Shown here: positions 1 through 39,357 of the stretch, one piece after another
Position numbering within the stretch: the first letter of the stretch is position 1
Layout of the letters: every line of letters begins with the position of its first letter
Virus record (IMG/VR): IMGVR_UViG_2585427781_000002
Length of the DNA: 40,067 bases
DNA from: a virus
Taxonomy: Duplodnaviria; Heunggongvirae; Uroviricota; Caudoviricetes
Strand: one strand, 5' to 3'
Position numbers and translations under genes: made by a program
Notes under the pieces: generated by a model
Database searches by the model: none
The model's input: only the letters and a program-made list of their open reading frames with translations
Told to the model about the DNA's origin: nothing

Positions 1-1871
1 GTCGCATAATTGCCAATCTCAACGTAAATATCATATGTATCGCCGGATGTGTTGATCCAGGCGAAATTCGTTAATCCGACGGCTGTACGCTTCCACAAAG
101 CCCCGGTAATTCCTTTGGGGTTTCCATTGCCTGCTCGTAGAACCAGTTCTGAAATGCCTGCCTGATGTGGGGAACCGACGTTGTAACCAGCGCCACCAAT
201 CAATGCGATGTAAACGATGGAACTCGCTTGTGGCATGGTAACCGTAGCCAGTTTGAACCACCCAGCCCCGCCAGAGAAAGACATCGTTACTGAATTTAAA
301 GTACCAATATCTTTCGGCGTTAATGTTATATCCGCAGTCAGTGCTTTTCCGTTAACTTTTCGGTTAGATGGCACCCTGCTATTCGCATTGTCATTGGCTG
401 CTTTAACTGCTTTTGGCGTTGCGGCCAGCGATTCACTGGTGCTATCAACAGCACTGCTAAGTTTCACAACACCTTTAGTTGTAAGGCTTGCGTCTTCCAT
501 CGCAACTGCACCGGCCATCTCTTCAGCACGATCAGCAGCAGCTTCCGCACGGGTCGCAGCGGATTCAGCAGTAGTTTTGCTCTGAGATGCTGCCGTCGCA
601 CTGCCTGCCGCCTCTGTTGCCTTCGTGGATGCCGTCGTGGCGCTGCTCTTCGCTGCTGACGCCTGTCTGGTCGCCTCATCTTTTGAAGCAGACGCAGATG
701 ATGCCGATGACGACGCCGAACTGGCTGACGATGCGGCAGCCGTTTTTGAGGATTCTGCGCTGGTTTCCGACGCTTTCGCGTTCGTTTCGGATGTCTTCGC
801 TGCGGAAGCAGACCTCGCTGCTGCGCTGGCCTGTTCAGTGGCTTCGCCAGCCTTCGTTGTGGCTGTTGAAGCAGACGATGCGGCGCTTTCTGCCGATTTT
901 CCGGCGGCGGTGGCACTGGCTGAGGCCTGCCCGGCACTTGTTGACGCTGCACTGGCAGACGACGCAGCCGCTGTTTTTGAGCCTGCCGCAGCCGAGGCGC
1001 TCTGTCCCGCTGCCGTTTCAGAAGACCTGGCGTTCGTCTCTGACGTTTTTGCCGCCTTCGCGGAATTTCCTGCCGCTGTTGCCGAGGAAGCTGCGCTACT
1101 GGCGCTCGAGGATGCGTTCGTTTCTGATGATTTTGCCGCCTCTTTTGAAGCCGCCGCATCCCGGGCTGAGGTGGCAGCTTCTGACGCTTTCGTAGTTGCG
1201 GTGGATGCAGAAGTGGCTGCTGATTGTTGTGACGCTGCAGCATTCGTTTCTGACGTTTTCGCGGCACTGGCACTGGTAGCTGCCGCGCTTTTTGAGGACT
1301 CTGCAGCGGCAGCACTTTTTGATGCTTCAGTAGCCTTTGTTGATGCCGTTCCTGCGCTGGAAGTCGCTGACTGAGCCGACGACGCGGCCTGTCCGGCTGA
1401 CGTGCTGGCTGCGCGTGCTGAGCCTGCAGCATCAGTCGCATGGGTTGCCGCCTCACGGGCTGATGTGCTGGCATCACTGGCTGACTTCTTCGCGGCTGCC
1501 GTGTTCTGTGCCACCACGGACGCGTTACGCGCCACCTCTTCCACCATCAGCTCAAAACGGCGCAGTGCCTCCGGACGGGCATCATCCTCCGTCATGGCAC
1601 CGAGAAAATCATTCAGCGTACCGGGTCGGGAATCTTCATACACTGTGATGGTCCCGGCATGTGACGGCGGGAATCCTTCCACCAACAGACTGACGCTGTA
1701 CTGACCGTACTCAACGTCCATACTGTAACGCCCGGCTTCATCCGGATTTTCAGATGCCAGCGTGTTCACCACCACCGTGGTACTGTTACGTTTTGCTTTC
1801 AGCTGGATTGTGCAGTTCTGTACCGGTTTTCCTGTGCCGTCTTTCAGTACACCTGAAATTTTTACTGCCAT
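1..1871 (-). CDS. stf: side tail fiber protein Stf, 5' portion (gene runs off the left edge)
   Basis: Minus-strand frame from ATG at 1871..1869 reads MAVKISGVLKDGTGKPVQNCTIQLKA... then long Ala/Ser/Thr-rich repeats (KTSETNA-type), matching the lambda Stf N-terminus as remembered. No in-window stop, so it is absent from the ORF track. Lies directly downstream of lom as in lambda. Confidence 0.75.
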   Translation of the reverse strand, partial: MAVKISGVLKDGTGKPVQNCTIQLKAKRNSTTVVVNTLASENPDEAGRYSMDVEYGQYSVSLLVEGFPPSHAGTITVYEDSRPGTLNDFLGAMTEDDARPEALRRFELMVEEVARNASVVAQNTAAAKKSASDASTSAREAATHATDAAGSARAASTSAGQAASSAQSATSSAGTASTKATEASKSAAAAESSKSAAATSASAAKTSETNAAASQQSAATSASTATTKASEAATSARDAAASKEAAKSSETNASSSASSAASSATAAGNSAKAAKTSETNARSSETAAGQSASAAAGSKTAAASSASAASTSAGQASASATAAGKSAESAASSASTATTKAGEATEQASAAARSASAAKTSETNAKASETSAESSKTAAASSASSASSSASSASASKDEATRQASAAKSSATTASTKATEAAGSATAASQSKTTAESAATRAEAAADRAEEMAGAVAMEDASLTTKGVVKLSSAVDSTSESLAATPKAVKAANDNANSRVPSNRKVNGKALTADITLTPKDIGTLNSVTMSFSGGAGWFKLATVTMPQASSIVYIALIGGAGYNVGSPHQAGISELVLRAGNGNPKGITGALWKRTAVGLTNFAWINTSGDTYDIYVEIGNYA

Positions 1872-22609: not shown

Positions 22610-22880
22610 AATGTTACCGTAATATGTGAGTATCCATCGACTAGACACTAAGCAAAAAAGCTCCCGAAGGAGCCTTCATTTTCACTTTCTTAAATCTAAC
22701 GACAGACGGCTAACATTTAAGTATTGTGAAATATTATCAAATGTAATCATCATTGATTTACAAAAGATACATTTTGCCCCGAAAGGATTCCTGTCAGAAA
22801 CATCAAAAGATGATGTTCTATACTGAGAACCATGGCAACACGGGCATCTAAAGTGAATATGGTTTGTAATATTTTCTACC

Positions 22881-23093
22881 TCAAAGTGCCACAACATGAA
22901 CAGCCGCGGGGCCTTTAGGTCCGTTCTCAATACCAAATTCGACTTCCTGATTCTCAGTTAACGTTTTGAAATCGTTGCTCTGAATAGCTGAGAAATGGAC
23001 AAACACATCTTTGCTACCATCTTTCGGCGTGATGAAACCAAAACCTTTTTCAGGGTTAAACCATTTCACTAAACCAGTCATTTTGTTAGACAT
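22881..23093 (-). CDS. cspI: cold shock protein, CspA family (CspI-like)
   Basis: [70 protein letters not shown]; canonical RNP motifs, 70 aa; long AT-rich upstream region consistent with a csp 5' UTR. Confidence 0.9.
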
Positions 23094-23456
23094 CATTATT
23101 ACCTTTTGAAGAAGTTAGCCCTTGGGCAGAATGGTCCGAAAAAAAATATCAGAGAGAAAAACCAACAAGGAAATCTCAAGAGGTACAAATAATAAAATTA
23201 TAACAATGACTGCTTCAGATAATTTTGTAACAAACCAGAACACCATTAACGCATGATTAACCAACCATAGCAAGGATTACTTTTGTAAAGAAAAACACAC
23301 GAATGAAACAATAGCTTTATTTATTAATAAAACGTGTCATTCTGTCTAATGACCTTTTATCTTACCCTTAAGATTTCAAGGATTTTGACTCATGGAAGAG
23401 TCCTTTTTATTTAAATTTCACATTCAGCGCTAAAAATAATCCGATTTAATATTAAT

Positions 23457-25561: not shown

Positions 25562-26284
25562 CTAAGAAAATCTTGATAAATATTGGTGCGGAGGCACACC
25601 AAAATATCTTCTAAAAACACTTACAAAATATGATGCATTGTCATACCCGCATATTCCCGCCACCTTGCCGACAGTATGGTTACTGTAGATCAATAATCTT
25701 TGCGCCATCATCATTCGTTCTTCAAGAATTAATTTACTAAACGATAATCCTTCGTCTTTTAATTTTCTTTTTAACAAACTCTCGCTCATATATAATCTTG
25801 AAGATATATCACAAAGTCTCCATGACGCTGAGATATCCGAGTGAATAATAGCCTTAACTTTACAACCTAAGCTATTAAGACTTCCGAACAAAAAACTTTG
25901 CACTATTTTCTCTGAAGATAAGACAGCAAGACATGCAAGTGATATTTGATTTCTAACTACATCCACGGTTTTGCTATCACAATTCAAGCATGCAACCAAG
26001 TTCTTTAACAATGAAAAATCTTCACATTCTACTATCAAGTATGACGGATAAAACCTTCTTACAGAAAAAGGTGAGAGTGTGTAGTTTTTAAAGAAATCAT
26101 TAACTGTTTTCTCCTCAACATCTACGATCATTAGATGATCTGTATTTGACGAAAAAAGATCTTTTAAATTGTATTCAATGAGGACAGCATTTCCTTTTTT
26201 AAACAAAATATCTTCTTTACCAATTCGGACACCAAACGAGTTCAACACCAAAATGATAGAACATATGTATGGCATATTATCCAC
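25562..26284 (-). CDS. AraC/XylS-family transcriptional regulator
   Basis: 240-aa ORF with a C-terminal AraC-type helix-turn-helix (...GICGYDNASYFVSVFRRYFGVPPHQY); low-GC gene with a 400-bp AT-rich upstream region. Confidence 0.85.
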   Translation of the reverse strand: MDNMPYICSIILVLNSFGVRIGKEDILFKKGNAVLIEYNLKDLFSSNTDHLMIVDVEEKTVNDFFKNYTLSPFSVRRFYPSYLIVECEDFSLLKNLVACLNCDSKTVDVVRNQISLACLAVLSSEKIVQSFLFGSLNSLGCKVKAIIHSDISASWRLCDISSRLYMSESLLKRKLKDEGLSFSKLILEERMMMAQRLLIYSNHTVGKVAGICGYDNASYFVSVFRRYFGVPPHQYLSRFS

Positions 26285-26681
26285 CTGATATCATTGGGGT
26301 TACACCAGGTAAGTATAGGTGGAAAATCAATATTCGCCAGTTCAACAATAAGGAAAATCTCATTGCATCACAACTATAAAACCATGTGTTTAACTCACAA
26401 AAAACAAATCATTAAACTAATCTGTTATATTATAATAGCTGCGTGCAATAATAATATTATATACTCTTAATATTCACTTGAAATATCTTCATATAAAAAC
26501 AGATTGAATAAAATCGTTTGGGGCTGGTATGTTTACCAACATTAAATTGCATCTCAATGTTTTCTTTAGCGTGAACAGGATTTTTATAAAAACTGACACT
26601 ATGAGCATCATAGCGTAGTTTTTACGATTGTAAATATCCTGCATACAGGAACTCATCACTTTCAGATGATATCGCATACAG

Positions 26682-27641
26682 TTAATTCACCATCAGTCTT
26701 AGAGCCAGTTCTTCCGGATAGGGATCGAAGTAATTCTGTGTAAGCAAGTAATCATTAGGATACTCACCCAGATAATGCTTCAGCAGAGTCAACGGCGCAA
26801 GAAGAGGCAATGTGCCAAAGCGATAGTTAAGTATAACCTCGCTCAACTCTTTACGCTGGCGTGTACTTAAGTAATTACTAAAATACCCCTGTATATGCAT
26901 CAGCACATTCGTGTGATTTTTACGTGATGCTGGTTTTCTGAGAATCGCCATCAGATTATCACGATACACCTCAAAGTATGATTCAAGGTCCGCCCACTCG
27001 TGTATTGCAGCCACAAATGGTCCCATATCTTTATAGCCTGCCTGGCTATGCGCCAACAACTGAAGCTTATAACGACTATGAAAAGCTAATAACTCTCTTC
27101 TTGATAATTTCTCCTTGTAAAGGTGATTGAGCTCATGCAAAGCAAAAACTCTTTCAATAAAATTCTCACGAAGCACTGGATCATGTAATCGCCCATCCTC
27201 TTCAACCGGTAGCCAGGAAAACTTTTCCATCAAAGTGCTCGTAAATAGTCCCACTCCATCTTTACGACCTCGATTACCATTTTCATCATAGACACGCACG
27301 CGCTCCATGCCACAGCTGGGAGATTTAGCACAAACCACAAACCCCGATACATCCTTTAATTTGTCCATATAAGAACGACTAAACTCTGTCATTCTCTCTG
27401 TCACATCCTCATTCTGGTCGTGGCTGAAACACATCCGTATATTTCCTTGCTTCGAGCGCACAAGTCGTAGAGCAGGACGCGGAACTGGCAGCCCTATAGC
27501 CATTTCCGGACATACTGGTCTGAATGTTACCCATTCCACTAATTTGTCCATTAAAAAGTCATCTCTTTTGTGACCACCATCAAAACGAACAGCAGAACCG
27601 CCCAAACAACCGCTGATCCCAATCACAGGTTTTTTTATCAT
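26682..27641 (-). CDS. DUF523 (TudS-like thiouracil desulfidase family) fused to DUF1722
   Basis: 319-aa ORF; N-terminal GISGCLGG...FDGG with conserved cysteines (..RPVCPE.., ..CAKSPSCGMERV..) typical of DUF523, and a helical C-terminal half consistent with DUF1722. Confidence 0.65.
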   Translation of the reverse strand: MIKKPVIGISGCLGGSAVRFDGGHKRDDFLMDKLVEWVTFRPVCPEMAIGLPVPRPALRLVRSKQGNIRMCFSHDQNEDVTERMTEFSRSYMDKLKDVSGFVVCAKSPSCGMERVRVYDENGNRGRKDGVGLFTSTLMEKFSWLPVEEDGRLHDPVLRENFIERVFALHELNHLYKEKLSRRELLAFHSRYKLQLLAHSQAGYKDMGPFVAAIHEWADLESYFEVYRDNLMAILRKPASRKNHTNVLMHIQGYFSNYLSTRQRKELSEVILNYRFGTLPLLAPLTLLKHYLGEYPNDYLLTQNYFDPYPEELALRLMVN

Positions 27642-27833
27642 TTCCTCCCCCTTGACTAATTCATTAACACATAAACTTTGTAGTGCACGGACTAAATTGC
27701 CTTTCTGGCTTCATCACTGACAATTTTTCTGTTATTGACTATTCCTAATATAGTAGGAAAGTTCTTTAAGTGATCGGTCGTACTCATCTATCTTTCATAC
27801 TTACTCTCAACTATCAAAAGTACAGGATTTATT

Positions 27834-28358
27834 ATGAAGTTATGGCCTGTGTTGACTGGCATTGCACTCTCTTTCACTCTTATAGCATGTAAGGCCCCGA
27901 CACCACCTAAAGGTGTGCAGCCGATTACAAATTTTGACGCCAACCGCTACCTCGGAAAATGGTATGAAATAGCTCGCCTCGAGAACTGGTTCGAACGTGG
28001 TCTGGAACAGGTCAGCGCTACTTATGAAAAACGGAACGACGGAGGGATTCGCGTACTTAACCGTGGATACGATCCAACGAAAAACAAATGGAGCGAGAGC
28101 GAAGGTAAAGCATACTTTACTGGAGATACTAAAACTGCAGCGTTGAAAGTTTCGTTTTTTGGCCCCTTCTATGGTGGCTATAATGTAATCAAGCTGGATG
28201 ATGAGTATAAGTATGCTCTTGTCAGTGGTCCGAACAGAGAATACCTATGGATTCTGGCAAGGACCCAAACTATTCCAGATAATGTAAAAGCAGACTATGT
28301 GCGTACCGCTCAAAAGTTGGGATTCAATGTCAATGAACTATTATGGGTTAAACAATAA
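27834..28358 (+). CDS. blc: outer membrane lipocalin Blc
   Basis: 174-aa ORF with lipoprotein signal peptide and lipobox (LIAC), then ...NFDANRYLGKWYEIARLENWFERGLEQVSATY...KVSFFGPFYGGYNVI...YLWILART.., matching bacterial lipocalin as remembered. Confidence 0.9.
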   Translation: MKLWPVLTGIALSFTLIACKAPTPPKGVQPITNFDANRYLGKWYEIARLENWFERGLEQVSATYEKRNDGGIRVLNRGYDPTKNKWSESEGKAYFTGDTKTAALKVSFFGPFYGGYNVIKLDDEYKYALVSGPNREYLWILARTQTIPDNVKADYVRTAQKLGFNVNELLWVKQ

Positions 28359-30772: not shown

Positions 30773-30928
30773 TTACTCCTCAGGTTCGTAAGCTGTGAAG
30801 ACAGCGACCTCCGTCTGGCCGGTTCGGATTCGTACCTCGCAGAGGTCTTTCCTCGTTACCAGTGCCGTCACTATGACGGTTAAACAGATGACGATCAGGG
30901 CGATTAACATCGCCTTTTGCTGCTTCAT
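30773..30928 (-). CDS. hokD: Hok/Gef-family type I toxin
   Basis: From ATG 30928 with AAGGAG RBS: MKQQKAMLIALIVICLTVIVTALVTRKDLCEVRIRTGQTEVAVFTAYEPEE, 51 aa, single transmembrane helix plus the conserved Cys; an in-frame upstream extension (mok-like) is present in the track ORF. Confidence 0.9.
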   Translation of the reverse strand: MKQQKAMLIALIVICLTVIVTALVTRKDLCEVRIRTGQTEVAVFTAYEPEE

Positions 30929-31185
30929 AGCCTGCTTCTCCTTGCCTTTCGGCACGTAAGAGGCTAACCTACATGTGTCTAGCATGAAATTGGCCTCAGA
31001 TTAATGTTAAGCGTCTTGCAGGACGCGTAATGTTAACTGGGGCTTTTCTCTACCTGCCGTTGGTGTTCGTGCCCGAGGCAGATAGCCTCAAGCACCCGCA
31101 GTCATTCTACTTAACTAAGATTTCCCCGCAAACCGTTTTGTCCAGCACAGTAAATATCCAACTAAACCAATGGAGTTCGCTGTAT

Positions 31186-32706: not shown

Positions 32707-33129
32707 TCACAGTACCGCCTCCTGAAAATTACCCTGATAGAAAGCCAGTACACGCTGCATAGCTTCACTCTTCCGGCACTCGCGACAGATTATGTTTAGA
32801 CGACTGTCGTAGCGACGTATTTCTCCATCAGGTAGTGACCAGATAAGGTCCGGATCAACCACAGCGGGTTTCTTCACCTTCGCCCTAGAGAGTTTTTTGC
32901 GGGCATTTTGCCAGTCCTTTCGTGCCTGTTCAGACGGGAATAACCCGTAGCCGGAGTTGTATACATAACCACTGGCAACCAGCTCTCTGGCAAGAATGCT
33001 CATCAGATATCTTGTCGCACCTGTTTTAGCTTCCAACTGTCGTAATGTCTCGCGACCGCTCTGGCGCACAAGTTCGACCACCTGCTCTTTAATTTTTTCC
33101 CGCTCTTCCTGTGTAAAAACTTTTGCCAC
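32707..33129 (-). CDS. hypothetical phage protein (replication-module position)
   Basis: 140-aa ORF; its first ~42 codons overlap the last codons of the O-like ORF in another frame. Confidence 0.5.
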   Translation of the reverse strand: MAKVFTQEEREKIKEQVVELVRQSGRETLRQLEAKTGATRYLMSILARELVASGYVYNSGYGLFPSEQARKDWQNARKKLSRAKVKKPAVVDPDLIWSLPDGEIRRYDSRLNIICRECRKSEAMQRVLAFYQGNFQEAVL

Positions 33130-33878
33130 AAGTCCTCCTTAAAGGCAGCCTGTTCGTAAAGGTTCACGATCCGCCCCCAAATCCACTGCGCACACGCCAA
33201 ATCCTCCCTGCTACCCCACTGGCGTTTTTTCGCACTAAACACAACCGCGTCGGGGTTCCGGATTAAAAAATCCTGTTCAGCGGTCTGCAGGTCCGGTTGC
33301 GAAGCTTCCGGACGAAAAGTGTTTTTATTCTCTGTAGTAATCTCTGTTGTATTCTCTGTAAGATCATCAGGCCATTTTGACCCGATGACATTGGGTCGTT
33401 TTGAACCAATGGAGCGTTTCATTTTGACCTCTTCCATCGTGTCATTTTGACCTGATGGAGCGGCGCATTTTGAACCGATGGATTCGTTCAATTTGCCACC
33501 ATCTAAAAGCTCGCTCCCATAGTTGATCGTGTAGAAATTGGTCATATCGCGCTTTGATTTATTGAGCTTTTCACAACGCAAAAGCCCCAGCGTTTTCAGA
33601 CTTGCAAACGCGCGCTTTAACGTTGACTCTGACCAGAATGGGAACTGTTCCAGCCATTGTTCCGTTGTGTTGTAAATCCAGCGAACACCATCACATTCCA
33701 TGCCGGAATTGGTATCTCTCAACCAGTAATGCAACTGCTGCAACACAATGGCTTCATTTAAGCCAATCTTCATCGCAAGCTGTGTGTTTATAACCAGTGG
33801 GCGTTCAGCAAAAAGAAGGCTCATAATTCCATCCAGCTTTTTGTTGGTATTGCTGTCGATACGCAAGTTTGAAAGCAA
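33003..33878 (-). CDS. replication initiator, lambda O-like (replisome organizer N-terminal domain)
   Basis: N-terminal ..LNEAIVLQQLHYWLRDTN...RWIYNTTEQWLEQFPFWSESTLKRAFASLKTLGLL.. resembles phage replisome-organizer domains; the central SIGSK repeats are encoded by the iteron array inside the gene. The start may be an internal Met. Confidence 0.7.
   Translation of the reverse strand: MLSNLRIDSNTNKKLDGIMSLLFAERPLVINTQLAMKIGLNEAIVLQQLHYWLRDTNSGMECDGVRWIYNTTEQWLEQFPFWSESTLKRAFASLKTLGLLRCEKLNKSKRDMTNFYTINYGSELLDGGKLNESIGSKCAAPSGQNDTMEEVKMKRSIGSKRPNVIGSKWPDDLTENTTEITTENKNTFRPEASQPDLQTAEQDFLIRNPDAVVFSAKKRQWGSREDLACAQWIWGRIVNLYEQAAFKEDLWQKFLHRKSGKKLKSRWSNLCARAVARHYDSWKLKQVRQDI
33373..33500. repeat. 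iteron array (candidate origin of replication) inside the O-like gene
   Basis: Six direct repeats of CATTTTGA(A/C)C(N)GATGG-like units at about 23-bp spacing (starts near 33373, 33397, 33420, 33443, 33466, 33489), the last one degenerate. Confidence 0.65.
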
Positions 33879-34326
33879 TTGCTTTTTCTATAAGTTCGTC
33901 AGTTTCACGATCCACTACGGCAGGATCAGCAAAAAGCAGTCCGGACTCCACCACATCGCCATATTCTTTGTTTAACCCGGCGATCATGTACGTGATGCTT
34001 TTTCCGTCACTAATTTCACGATACAACCTGAAATCATTAATCCGGATAGCCTCCATAATTGCAGGCACTAGCGCCGTGAACTTTTCACGCTTATCCCTGG
34101 TGTCGATAGCCTTCCAGCGTTCGAATATCTTCACTCGATTAACGCCAAGCGCTCGCTGATCAACCGCGCCACCTTCATCTGTGACACGCTGAACATCGAT
34201 GTTCGGGCGCTCTTTCAAAGCCCAGAATGCTTCAGTGATTAATATCGTCGCCTGCTCCTGTGTCATTCCTGGTCGACATATCCAGGCATCCAGAGCCTCA
34301 CGAGCCTGTTCAGGAGTGATTTTCAT
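33805..34326 (-). CDS. hypothetical early-region protein (CII-position)
   Basis: 173-aa ORF between the Cro-like gene and the O-like gene; no confident family assignment. Confidence 0.45.
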   Translation of the reverse strand: MKITPEQAREALDAWICRPGMTQEQATILITEAFWALKERPNIDVQRVTDEGGAVDQRALGVNRVKIFERWKAIDTRDKREKFTALVPAIMEAIRINDFRLYREISDGKSITYMIAGLNKEYGDVVESGLLFADPAVVDRETDELIEKAIAFKLAYRQQYQQKAGWNYEPSFC

Positions 34327-34537
34327 TGTTCAACCGCCCCGCCCGCTTCGTCTTACGATATTCGTCATAAACCTTGGGATCATACAGAAGCTCCCCGCCA
34401 GATGCCTCCTGTAGACGCATCGCGCGACCTTCAGGAACCAGCTCTTGCCATTGAGAAACAGCAGATGGGTCAACGCCAGCAGCTTTCGCTACTTTGGCTT
34501 TCGTACCGTAAAAATTAATTACGTCTGATTTAAACAT
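34310..34537 (-). CDS. dicC: Cro-like repressor, DicC-like
   Basis: From ATG 34537 with GGAGGT RBS: MFKSDVINFYGTKAKVAKAAGVDPSAVSQWQELVPEGRAMRLQEASGGELLYDPKVY..., 75 aa, divergent from the dicA-like gene. Confidence 0.7.
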   Translation of the reverse strand: MFKSDVINFYGTKAKVAKAAGVDPSAVSQWQELVPEGRAMRLQEASGGELLYDPKVYDEYRKTKRAGRLNNENHS

Positions 34538-34614
34538 CGCACCTCCAATATTGAGTTTTCTCAATGCTAATCACTCAAGGAATCTCAAGTCAAGGGTTAT
34601 TAAGATATCTAAAT
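34538..34614. promoter_or_regulatory. divergent promoter/operator region between the dicC-like and dicA-like genes
   Basis: 77-bp intergenic region with palindrome TTGAG-TTTT-CTCAA (34551-34564) and repeated CTCAAG(G/T) units, consistent with repressor operators. Confidence 0.4.
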
Positions 34615-35022
34615 ATGAACGAGAAAACTTTAGGTCAACGCATTAGAGAAAGACGTAAGCAGGTAGGCTTAAGTCAAAACGGTTTAAGCAAAGCTGCTGG
34701 CGTATCTGGCTCATCAATTTCATTATGGGAAAGTGACCATACAGCCCCGCGTGGGCAAAATTTGCATCGCCTCGCCGAGGTATTGCAATGTTCACCAACC
34801 TGGATACTGTTTGGCGACGAGGACAAAACACCAGCTCCCCCTGTTTCACTCGATAGTGCCTTAGACTTATCGGAAGATGAGTTAGAGATGCTGCGTTTGT
34901 ATCGCGCACTTCCTAAATCAGAGCAACAAGCACAACTCAGCGAACTCCGCGCCCGCGTTGAGAATTTTAATCGCCTGTTCACCGAGCTATTAGAGGCTCG
35001 CAAACGCAACAAGCATCAATAA
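34615..35022 (+). CDS. dicA: CI-like repressor DicA (HTH XRE family)
   Basis: From ATG 34615: MNEKTLGQRIRERRKQVGLSQNGLSKAAGVSGSSISLWESDHTAPRGQNLHRLAEVLQCSPTWILFGDEDK..., 135 aa, closely resembling DicA as remembered. Confidence 0.9.
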   Translation: MNEKTLGQRIRERRKQVGLSQNGLSKAAGVSGSSISLWESDHTAPRGQNLHRLAEVLQCSPTWILFGDEDKTPAPPVSLDSALDLSEDELEMLRLYRALPKSEQQAQLSELRARVENFNRLFTELLEARKRNKHQ

Positions 35023-36187: not shown

Positions 36188-36246
36188 TTTTCTGGTGACG
36201 TTTGGCGGTATCAGTTTTACTCCGTGACTGCTCTGCCGCCGTTTTT
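36188..36246 (+). ncRNA. dicF: DicF small regulatory RNA
   Basis: TTTCTGGTGACGTTTGGCGGTATCAGTTTTACTCCGTGACTGCTCTGCCGCCGTTTTT matches the DicF sRNA as remembered, including the terminal hairpin plus T-run; located between the ydfB/C-position gene and dicB. Confidence 0.8.
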
Positions 36247-36885: not shown

Positions 36886-39357
36886 ATGAGTAAAGTCTTT
36901 ATTTGCGCCGCTATTCCTGACGAACTGGCAACAAGGGAAGAAGGCGCTGTGGCTGTAGCCACAGCCATTGAAGCTGGCGACGAACGCCGTGCTCGAGCAA
37001 AATTTCACTGGCAGTTCCTGGAACATTATCCGGCTGCTCAGGACTGCGCTTATAAATTTATTGTCTGCGAGGATAAACCTGGCATACCCCGCCCTGCCCT
37101 CGATTCATGGGATGCTGAATATATGCAGGAAAACCGCTGGGATGAGGAGTCTGCTTCTTTTGTCCCGGTTGAGACTGAATCCGATCCGATGAACGTCACT
37201 TTTGACAAGCTGGCCCCTGAAGTACAGAACGCTGTCATGGTTAAGTTCGACACATGTGAAAACATCACCGTTGATATGGTTATTAGCGCACAGGAATTGT
37301 TGCAGGAAGACATGGCAACATTCGACGGACATATCGTTGAAGCGTTGATGAAAATGCCAGAAGTTAACGCCATGTATCCGGAGCTTAAGTTGCACGCCAT
37401 TGGGTGGGTTAAGCATAAATGTATTCCTGGTGCTAAATGGCCCGAAATTCAGGCAGAGATGCGCATCTGGAAAAAACGTCGCGAAGGTGAACGCAAGGAA
37501 ACCGGAAAATACACGTCTGTTGTTGATCTCGCCCGCGCCAGAGCCAATCAACAGTACACTGAAAATTCAACAGGAAAAATCAGCCCGGTCATTGCTGCCA
37601 TTCATCGCGAATACAAGCAGACATGGAAAACACTGGATGACGAACTGGCCTACGCTCTCTGGCCTGGTGATGTGGATGCCGGAAACATTGACGGCAGCAT
37701 CCATCGCTGGGCAAAAAAAGAAGTTATCGACAACGACCGCGAAGACTGGAAGCGTATCTCGGCATCAATGCGCAAACAGCCTGATGCCCTTCGCTACGAC
37801 CGCCAGACTATTTTTGGCCTTGTCCGTGAGCGTCCGATCGACATTCACAAAGATCCCATAGCACTGAACAAATATATCTGCGAATACCTGACGACAAAGG
37901 GCGTGTTTGAGAATGAAGAAACAGACCTGGGCACTGTTGATGTTCTCCAGTCATCAGAAACACAAACTGATGCAGTGGAAACTGAGGTATCTGATATCCC
38001 AAAAAATGAAACCGCGCCGGAAGCTGAACCATCTGTAGAGCGTGAGGGGCCGTTCTATTTCCTCTTCGCAGATAAGGACGGAGAAAAATACGGTCGCGCA
38101 AACAAACTTTCTGGTCTGGATAAGGCACTGGCTGCTGGCGCCACTGAAATCACAAAAGAAGAATATTTTGCCCGAAAAAATGGCACATACACGGGCTTAC
38201 CGCAAAATGTAGATACCGCTGAAGATTCAGAACAACCAGAGCCGATAAAAGTTACCGCTGACGAAGTAAACAAAATTATGCAGGCAGCCAATATCAGCCA
38301 GCCTGACGCCGATAAGTTGCTTGCTGCATCACGTGGTGAATTTGTTGAAGGGATTAGTGACCCGAATGATCCGAAATGGGTTAAGGGGATCCAGACCCGC
38401 GATTCTGTGAACCAGAACCAGCATAAATCGGAACGGAACTACCAAAAAGCGGAACAAAACAGCACAAATGCGTTACAAAACGAGCCAGAAACGAAACAGC
38501 CTGAACCAGTGGCGCAACAGGAAGTGGAAAAAGTCTGCACCGCCTGCGGTCAGACCGGCGGCGGCAACTGCCCTGATTGTGGCGCGGTGATGGGCGACGC
38601 AACATATCAAGAAACATTCGATGAAGAATATCAGGTTGAAGTTCAGGAAGATGATCCGGAGGAAATGGAAGGCGCTGAACATCCACACAAGGAGAACACT
38701 GGCGGCAATCAGCATCACAATAGCGATAATGAAACTGGCGAGACGGCAGATCACTCAATTAAGGTGAACGGTCATCACGAAATCACATCCACCAGCAGGA
38801 CGTGTGACCATCTAATGATCGACCTTGAAACCATGGGAAAAAATCCTGATGCCCCGATCATCTCAATAGGTGCAATATTTTTCGATCCGCAAACCGGAGA
38901 TATGGGACCGGAATTTAGTAAGACTATCGATCTGGAAACTGCTGGCGGAGTCATTGATCGGAACACCATTAAATGGTGGCTTAAGCAATCACGCGAAGCG
39001 CAATCTGCCATTATGACCGATGAAATCCCGTTAGATGATGCACTGTTACAATTGCGGGAATTTATCGACGAAAACTCCGGTGAATTTTTTGTTCAGGTTT
39101 GGGGAAATGGAGCCAACTTCGACAACACGATTTTGCGCCGTTCATACGAACGGCAGGGGATCCCCTGCCCGTGGCGTTACTACAACGATCGCGATGTACG
39201 CACAATCGTTGAGCTGGGGAAAGCCATAGACTTCGATGCCAGAACGGCTATTCCATTCGAAGGTGAGCGCCATAATGCACTTGATGACGCCCGTTACCAG
39301 GCAAAATACGTTTCAGTTATCTGGCAAAAACTGATCCCGAGTCAGGCTGATTCTTAA
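36886..39357 (+). CDS. large early-region protein with a C-terminal DnaQ-like (DEDDh) 3'-5' exonuclease domain
   Basis: 823-aa ORF with GAGGT RBS; C-terminal ~200 aa carry exonuclease motifs (MIDLETMG..., ..GNGANFDNTIL.., ..HNALDDARYQA..); a central CxxC...CPDC zinc ribbon; N-terminal ~550 aa acidic and of unknown function. Confidence 0.6.
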   Translation: MSKVFICAAIPDELATREEGAVAVATAIEAGDERRARAKFHWQFLEHYPAAQDCAYKFIVCEDKPGIPRPALDSWDAEYMQENRWDEESASFVPVETESDPMNVTFDKLAPEVQNAVMVKFDTCENITVDMVISAQELLQEDMATFDGHIVEALMKMPEVNAMYPELKLHAIGWVKHKCIPGAKWPEIQAEMRIWKKRREGERKETGKYTSVVDLARARANQQYTENSTGKISPVIAAIHREYKQTWKTLDDELAYALWPGDVDAGNIDGSIHRWAKKEVIDNDREDWKRISASMRKQPDALRYDRQTIFGLVRERPIDIHKDPIALNKYICEYLTTKGVFENEETDLGTVDVLQSSETQTDAVETEVSDIPKNETAPEAEPSVEREGPFYFLFADKDGEKYGRANKLSGLDKALAAGATEITKEEYFARKNGTYTGLPQNVDTAEDSEQPEPIKVTADEVNKIMQAANISQPDADKLLAASRGEFVEGISDPNDPKWVKGIQTRDSVNQNQHKSERNYQKAEQNSTNALQNEPETKQPEPVAQQEVEKVCTACGQTGGGNCPDCGAVMGDATYQETFDEEYQVEVQEDDPEEMEGAEHPHKENTGGNQHHNSDNETGETADHSIKVNGHHEITSTSRTCDHLMIDLETMGKNPDAPIISIGAIFFDPQTGDMGPEFSKTIDLETAGGVIDRNTIKWWLKQSREAQSAIMTDEIPLDDALLQLREFIDENSGEFFVQVWGNGANFDNTILRRSYERQGIPCPWRYYNDRDVRTIVELGKAIDFDARTAIPFEGERHNALDDARYQAKYVSVIWQKLIPSQADS

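Follow-up and report, generated by a model that had tools for sequence, protein, structure and literature searches.

The initiator gene and its genomic context

The window, i.e., the whole 40,067-nt stretch of viral DNA that was analyzed, is a Qin-like lambdoid prophage with genes for a J-type tail tip, gpA terminase, lysozyme, and DUF968; Rfam matches to DicF RNA (36190-36241, plus strand), sok antitoxin RNA (30923-31097, minus strand), and a cspA-type thermoregulator leader (22835-23251, minus strand) also mark it as Qin-like. A replication initiator gene lies in the early operon, among the following features:

33003-33824, minus: initiator open reading frame (ORF), from the ATG at 33824 to 33003 (ORF list)
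33510-33824, minus: initiator codons 1-105, N-terminal DNA-binding domain, probably winged-helix (AF2, Foldseek, covariation)
33300-33509, minus: initiator codons ~106-175, predicted disordered linker (AF2), the coding DNA of which is the putative origin (iterons and 12-mers)
33144-33299, minus: initiator codons ~176-227, remainder of a lambda-O-like C-terminal domain (BLASTP, tblastn)
33143/33144: junction left by a clean deletion of 311 bp, as judged against the intact phages mEp460_ev081 and HannyBb (two-piece BLAST matches, junction sequences)
33003-33143, minus: out-of-frame tail of the truncated initiator ORF, running through the start of the next gene (ORF list, alignment)
32707-33129, minus: downstream gene, DUF977 / LygF / "Ren-like exclusion protein", not a helicase loader (Pfam DUF977, E 3e-29; phrog_142)
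33805-34326, minus: YdaT / CII-like gene directly upstream, overlapping the initiator start by 20 nt (Pfam YdaT_toxin; phrog_163)
34310-34564, minus: Cro-like gene, first in the early operon, which extends through the putative origin (Pfam P22_Cro, E 4.5e-16)
34564-34593, minus: pR-like sigma-70 promoter match, TTGACT-18-TAGCAT (consensus scan alone)
34564-35022, plus: divergent cI-like repressor gene (Pfam HTH_3, Phage_CI_repr)

Transcription from the pR-like promoter match would pass through the putative origin. No P-, DnaC-, or DnaB-like gene was identified among the scanned ORFs of the window or in the annotated stretches around the initiator gene in the intact phages. Elsewhere in the window, a cargo-like block (25562-28358) encodes an AraC-type regulator, a 2-thiouracil desulfurase/DUF1722 protein, and a lipocalin (Blc-like). 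Tandem repeats of 21 nt (seven codons) occur at 521-570 and 911-957 in the ORF at 464-1477 (minus strand; 337 aa, with no Pfam family) and at 38415-38469 in the ORF at 36886-39357 (plus strand); in both ORFs these are probably peptide repeats.

Neither the window initiator nor its intact relative matches a Pfam family, even at E ≤ 10, and NCBIfam likewise gave no family. In PHROGs, the intact relative belongs to phrog_391 ("replication initiation O-like," E 1e-92), and the match is near full-length, with residues 17-321 covering positions 11-298 of the 298-position profile. BLASTP aligned its C-terminal half with lambda O (34% identity, E 3e-28) over residues 147-294 only, the start of the alignment coinciding with the last iteron and the AT-rich tract; tblastn against phages similarly related residues 170-315 to the C-terminal parts of the O proteins of lambda, 21, and 933W and to phi80 gp15 (~37%, E 2e-17). 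The sequence-only reading had called the ORF O-like; its N-domain, however, is not of the lambda O type, Pfam Phage_rep_O matching neither the window protein nor the intact relative. Residues 1-130 match "replication initiation / DnaD-like" phage proteins at 46-71% identity (tblastn), in phages of Klebsiella, Providencia, Pseudomonas, Staphylococcus, and Bacillus, and the N-domain was detected in 10,323 representative protein clusters at E ≤ 1e-3.

An AF2 model predicts a helix-strand-helix N-domain (pLDDT ~57-77), a helical C-domain, and disorder across residues 101-175 (pLDDT 23-47), exactly the stretch whose coding DNA holds the iterons and 12-mers. The top Foldseek matches in the PDB were the N-domains of staphylococcal RepA_N initiators (4pql_B, 4pt7_B, and the Rep-DNA complex 5kbj), followed by winged-helix regulators, all of them weak (E 0.01-0.1, TM ~0.5, for a query model with a mean pLDDT of 52). 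Pfam searches with the window protein and 35 diverse members gave just weak generic wHTH matches; RepA_N (PF06970) was absent among the matches listed for the window protein and among the top 25 families for the 35 members, and PDB sequence searches, whether with one sequence or with the 35-member profile, returned nothing beyond a short DnaT-tail match. The N-terminal domain represents a family distinct from that of lambda O, probably winged-helix and without a Pfam model. At the other end of the protein, the last ~20 residues of intact relatives (...EPDTEIPPGFRG; 2771-2833 of the intact locus) resemble the DnaT C-terminus (NCBIfam E 0.015, PDB E 0.014-0.04). This tail, together with the lack of a P-, DnaC-, or DnaB-like gene, hints at helicase recruitment via host restart factors.

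The tail is missing from the window. The intact module, with the same iterons and 12-mers and a full 321-aa initiator gene, is present in the isolated phages mEp460_ev081, HannyBb, and PhiR42_1 (96-99% nucleotide identity over the gene), the records of which carry no origin annotation. Compared with mEp460_ev081 and HannyBb, the window has lost the last 95 initiator codons and the intergenic spacer through the 311-bp deletion; identity in the flanks is 99.4% and 91.7%, and there is no obvious microhomology at the junction. The window initiator is 99.4% identical to its intact relative over the retained 681 nt and keeps ~52 of the ~146 residues of the lambda-O-like C-domain, and past the junction its ORF runs 47 codons out of frame into the DUF977 gene. 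Most of the best-matching complete Escherichia coli genomes listed have the intact 702-bp form, and five of those listed have the deletion; the deletion allele is that of a few E. coli genomes (2018-06-4CC, EA13, 2017.03.02CC, and 30EVA1), and is annotated in RefSeq as a pseudogene ("missing C-terminus"). The opposite polarity, in which the window ORF has its true full length and the phages carry an insertion, was rejected in view of the 127 nt that run out of frame into the next gene and of the RefSeq annotation. By analogy with lambda O and pSK41 Rep, which require the C-domain, the window initiator is probably inactive, and its origin is probably orphaned by the loss of the C-terminal 95 residues; the origin DNA is intact in the window, and could then fire only with an intact cognate initiator supplied in trans.

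Two repeat arrays within the initiator gene

Direct repeats with a 23-bp period occupy the middle of the initiator gene, and were delimited as follows:

33373-33511, minus: iteron array, core GGTCAAAATG (Tandem Repeats Finder [TRF], repeat search, shuffle test, motif clustering, homologues in 80 species)
33489-33511, minus, gene sense: iteron unit AGCTTTTAGATGGTGGCAAATTG (degenerate; core version GGCAAATTG)
33466-33488, minus, gene sense: iteron unit AACGAATCCATCGGTTCAAAATG
33443-33465, minus, gene sense: iteron unit CGCCGCTCCATCAGGTCAAAATG
33420-33442, minus, gene sense: iteron unit ACACGATGGAAGAGGTCAAAATG
33397-33419, minus, gene sense: iteron unit AAACGCTCCATTGGTTCAAAACG
33373-33396, minus, gene sense: iteron unit ACCCAATGTCATCGGGTCAAAATG, the full palindromic form of which reaches down to 33365

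The array thus comprises six units at 23/24-bp spacing, five of them clear and one (33489-33511) degenerate. TRF reported a period of 23 with 3.7 copies across 33399-33482, and a second repeat search gave repeat families spaced 24, 23, 23, and 23 across 33365-33496. The autocorrelation of 33365-33503 at lag 23 is 0.552, compared with 0.255 ± 0.043 in 5000 dinucleotide-preserving shuffles (z ~7), and none of the 5000 shuffles attains 0.552 at any lag from 8 to 59. These three analyses bear out the six direct repeats of about 23-bp spacing that had been noticed from the letters alone, with the qualification that one is degenerate, and establish the significance of the periodicity. The array also lies inside the O-like ORF, where the sequence-only reading had placed it; the ORF itself, however, is the C-terminally truncated, frame-shifted allele described above. 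Window-wide, GGTCAAAATG has eight matches at ≤1 mismatch, of which four are inside the array, all on one strand, and a scan with this core revealed no second iteron cluster in the 40-kb window.

Three of the units are 23-bp partial palindromes (33365-33387, 33389-33411, and 33435-33457) of the form CATCnGGTC-AAAAT-GACnnGATG; these have dyad symmetry, with 6-8 of nine arm positions complementary, and two iteron units retain a single half-site. There is no DnaA box at the origin, the sole nearby match (33110) being at chance level, and a lambda-like palindrome sought past the AT-rich tract has just 6-bp arms and is not meaningful.

Because 23 is not a multiple of three, successive iteron units are translated in different frames, and the encoded peptides are, in order, SIGSK, PSGQN, EEVKM, SIGSK, and then IGSK after the 24-nt step. 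Accordingly, the repeated SIGSK peptide first reported for this array is only partly upheld: SIGSK is encoded twice and IGSK once, and the other units read PSGQN and EEVKM in the other two frames. As the DNA core persists although the units fall in all three frames, the constraint acts on the DNA.

Immediately beyond the iterons in gene sense is a second, shorter array:

33325-33361, minus: three tandem 12-bp repeats, core CAGAGAnTAC, proposed DNA-unwinding element (TRF period 12, GC content, homologues)

In gene sense these repeats read TACAGAGAATAC / AACAGAGATTAC / TACAGAGAATAA, and the sense strand of the array is strongly A-rich. The AT-rich region that was sought downstream of the iterons on the minus strand is present at 33320-33359, directly downstream of the iterons, with a GC content of 30%, the minimum of the initiator gene, although the AT content of the 12-mers is merely moderate (~67%). 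In the E. coli type, the 36-bp duplex window at the 12-mers has a stability of -39.8 kcal/mol, compared with a gene mean of -49.3 kcal/mol.

Both arrays appear to vary in copy number. Natural 290-aa variants of the initiator lack exactly 31 aa, i.e., 93 nt or four iteron units; the E. coli 290-aa alleles keep two iterons, and one locus has four 12-mers rather than three (gene nt 467-512). Judging by these variants, the iterons and 12-mers in the initiator gene look recombinogenic.

A low-complexity protein linker with SIGSK and TENT repeats could in principle generate such periodicity as a by-product, with no function for the DNA. The region does encode a predicted disordered linker, and the in-frame 12-nt repeat encodes TENT/TEIT. 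However, the 23-bp units keep the same DNA core in all three frames, palindromic half-sites are meaningless for a peptide, and iteron bases covary with a residue at least 40 codons upstream (see below). In addition, homologues with an 11-nt spacing of CAGAGAnTAC read the same DNA motif in two frames, as DRDY and TETT, which therefore is a DNA-level element. Peptide-driven repeats were rejected on the three-frame evidence, and we consider a linker by-product highly improbable.

Conservation in homologues and covariation with residue 67

The search of viral contigs gave just 97-99% identical copies, which were useless for comparison, and among 37 distinct close relatives the polymorphism was too low for a synonymous-site constraint test. 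A profile search of genome contigs with an alignment of the N-domain provided 80 loci from as many species, with genera that include Escherichia, Citrobacter, Pantoea, Xenorhabdus, Yersinia, Pseudomonas, and Acinetobacter, and spanning also Campylobacterales, Desulfuromonas, Bacillus, Geobacillus, and Staphylococcus. In most of the 80 loci, TRF reported a repeat of 21-24 bp in 3-6 copies, at gene nt ~320-460. The spacing of the iterons is quantized (23, 46, or 69), with a last step of 24 in many loci; their sequences are clade-specific yet always form a palindrome around CAAAWTG, as in GGTCAAAATGACC, GGGCAAATTGCAC, GGACAATTTGTCC, GGGGGCAGATTGCCCCC, and TGTTCAAAATGAACA, among which GGTCAAAATGACC and GGACAATTTGTCC are examples of clean palindromes. 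The order of elements is that of the window, with iterons first and then CAGAGAnTAC units at the same gene position.

CAGAGAnTAC was found in ~64 of the 80 homologues, in 2-5 copies at 11-12-bp spacing; it is always on the sense strand and in the same position, and is practically absent elsewhere in the genes. In 46 of these 64 homologues, the 36-bp window of lowest duplex stability in the gene is centered on the 12-mers. No description of a conserved CAGAGAnTAC 12-mer array was found in the full texts searched.

Several observations from the survey concern related or divergent loci. In Shigella phage SfIV, the initiator shares the lambda-O-like C-domain but has a different N-domain and no 12-mers; at an equivalent position (gene nt 310-373) there are in-frame 15-bp repeats (TCTGACCCGTCAAAA, peptide SDPSK/SDASK), which probably are another iteron type. 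Metagenome bins labeled as Veillonella parvula, Bacillota, and Collinsella contain 98-100% identical copies of the E. coli phage gene, most likely as binning contamination. Long proteins (400-880 aa) were also detected with two HMMER-matched stretches to the initiator N-domain. The N-domain was also detected in 89 plasmid records. Many of these are non-mobilizable replicons of ~40 kb from Bacillus and lactobacilli, possibly phage-plasmids, and the genes are annotated either as "replication protein" or as "conserved phage C-terminal domain-containing protein."

One residue of the N-domain is linked to the sequence of the iterons. Residue 67, S in WSESTLKR in the window, at the start of a predicted helix (66-78), tracks the base that neighbors the invariant C in every half-site (GG[T]CAAAATG[A]CC), in 56 of 56 loci. 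The position of the residue and the observed pairings, in which the counts are loci rather than independent events, are as follows:

33624-33626, minus: residue S67, initiator N-domain
Residue 67 S, base T: 30 of 30 loci
Residue 67 D, base G: 17 of 17 loci
Residue 67 K or R, base A: 7 of 7 loci
Residue 67 N, base C: 1 locus
Residue 67 V, base T: 1 locus

The D, K/R, and S classes each recur in several separate sequence clusters and host phyla. Direct recognition is favored because residue 67 tracks one iteron base without exception, and the pattern is as would be expected from a recognition-helix contact.

The 12-mers are near-invariant across phyla, whereas the 23-mers diverge, which suggests that the 12-mers have a specific recognition role that is unexplained by mere easy melting. 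It could therefore be argued that the CAGAGAnTAC repeats, instead of or besides the 23-mers, are the primary sequence-specific site, as initiator binding sites in single-stranded DNA or as a helicase-loading mark, and that the 23-mers mainly bend or position the DNA. The 12-mers travel with the N-domain and not with the C-domain: they are present in 56 loci that lack a lambda-O-like C-domain, and SfIV, with the same C-domain and a different N-domain, has none; furthermore, lambda O also binds AT-rich single-stranded DNA (PMC7466680). Against this, the one clear protein-DNA covariation involves the 23-mers, the iterons of lambda and of RepA_N plasmids (PMC7145576) resemble the 23-mers, and ~12 of 76 full-length homologues lack 12-mers altogether. 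We regard primary recognition of the 12-mers as rather unlikely, and favor the 23-bp iterons as the sites of sequence-specific binding.

A broader proposal, which we offer tentatively and at somewhat less than even confidence, is that a previously undescribed sequence-specific 12-mer element (maybe a single-stranded DNA or helicase-loading site instead of a passive AT-rich tract) is inherited as one cassette with the winged-helix domain and the 23-bp iterons, in phages and phage-plasmids of both Gram-negative and Gram-positive hosts, and that residue 67 sets the specificity of this cassette (S-T, D-G, K/R-A).

A putative bipartite origin compared with known systems

The lambda-style arrangement of an origin within its initiator gene, as suggested at the outset, finds support in the phrog_391 assignment, the homology to the C-terminal half of lambda O, the collinearity with ori-lambda, the AT-rich tract, the conservation across 80 species, and the covariation. 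From these comparisons of sequence, the repeats are almost certainly binding sites of a lambda-style replication origin inside their own initiator gene; more specifically, the array very probably represents the initiator-binding half of a bipartite phage origin, situated in the linker-coding middle of the gene. We infer that dimers of the initiator would bind, via the N-terminal winged-helix domain, five or six semi-palindromic 23-bp iterons (33373-33511), each centered on an A-tract and phased ~2.2 helical turns apart, and that binding would build a bent nucleoprotein complex like the lambda O-some. The resulting stress would open the adjacent least stable segment, at the 12-bp repeats (33325-33361), and in intact relatives the lambda-O-like C-domain with its DnaT-like tail would recruit the host helicase machinery.

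Plasmid iterons serve both initiation and control, and the iterons of the window might be initiator sites mainly for control (autoregulation, a transcriptional roadblock, or titration/handcuffing), with replication starting elsewhere. The sites are inside the transcribed early operon, downstream of the pR-like promoter match, as a control function would have it; in Stx phage origins, which have six iterons, the distal iterons are weakly bound yet required (PMC7466680), which is also compatible with such a function. However, a fixed distance invariably links the array to the gene's least stable DNA, the array and ori-lambda are collinear, and the 40-kb window has no other iteron cluster. A role mainly in control is thus improbable, and we retain the bipartite origin as the preferred reading.

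For the window, the result is mainly one of annotation: the origin of a Qin-like lambdoid prophage is located, and the initiator is shown to be truncated, which bears on prophage replication after induction. The cassette of N-domain, iterons, and 12-mers concerns thousands of protein clusters without a Pfam model, and a rule for locating the origins of many temperate phages and phage-plasmids would be useful for vector design and for studies of incompatibility and exclusion; the candidate one-residue/one-base specificity code could serve to engineer orthogonal origins. In the full texts searched, no publication was found on the origin, binding, or origin activity of the phrog_391-type initiator family.

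The closest known counterpart is ori-lambda, which consists of iterons and an AT-rich tract located centrally within gene O (PMC7466680). In both systems, dyad-symmetric iterons around CAAAA(C/T)G are followed by an AT-rich, purine-skewed tract, and both origin halves are mid-gene at nearly equal gene coordinates: iterons at nt 349-432 and AT-rich tract at 437-476 in lambda O, iterons at nt ~314-452 or 325-460 and short-repeat tract at 466-500 in the window gene, such that the two are collinear. The C-terminal halves of the initiators are homologous (34-37% identity), the window gene follows cro and a cII-like gene in the early rightward operon, as in lambda, and the window array has six iterons, as in Stx phages. 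Unlike lambda O, the window initiator has an N-domain from a different family, and this copy is truncated; its iterons are 23 bp long and of the GGTCAAAATGACC type, ordered 12-bp CAGAGAnTAC repeats replace the AT-rich tract, and there is no P gene, the intact protein having a DnaT-like tail instead.

RepA_N initiators provide the second counterpart. In pSK41, a 120-residue winged-helix N-domain of Rep binds four Rep boxes located centrally in rep, the central domain encoded by ori serves as a linker that can be dispensed with, and the C-terminal domain is essential (PMC5703833); central in-rep, semi-palindromic iterons that converge on an A-tract are described for the RepA_N plasmids pSK41 and pTZ2162 (PMC5703833, PMC7145576). 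The intact window-type initiator is likewise a three-part protein of ~320 aa, with a predicted winged-helix N-domain, an origin-encoded linker, and a swappable C-domain, and the window iterons are also central in the gene, semi-palindromic, and converging on an A-tract; a weaker likeness is that the N-domain model finds its best structural counterparts, themselves weak, in 4pql, 4pt7, and 5kbj. In contrast to RepA_N, the initiator has no sequence match to Pfam RepA_N or to PDB chains, its C-domain is lambda-O-like rather than DnaD-like, and the element is a prophage rather than a plasmid; a keyword search of RepA_N papers did not return a 12-mer array.

The phages mEp460_ev081, HannyBb, and PhiR42_1 have the same iterons and 12-mers as the window, but the window lacks the 311 bp. 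Overall, the window origin is an ordinary element of a well-known kind, in which known designs (ori-lambda and the pSK41 ori-in-rep) are combined, with a predicted specificity module that differs from that of lambda; only two parts may be new, namely the 12-mer array seen across the family and the residue-67 code.
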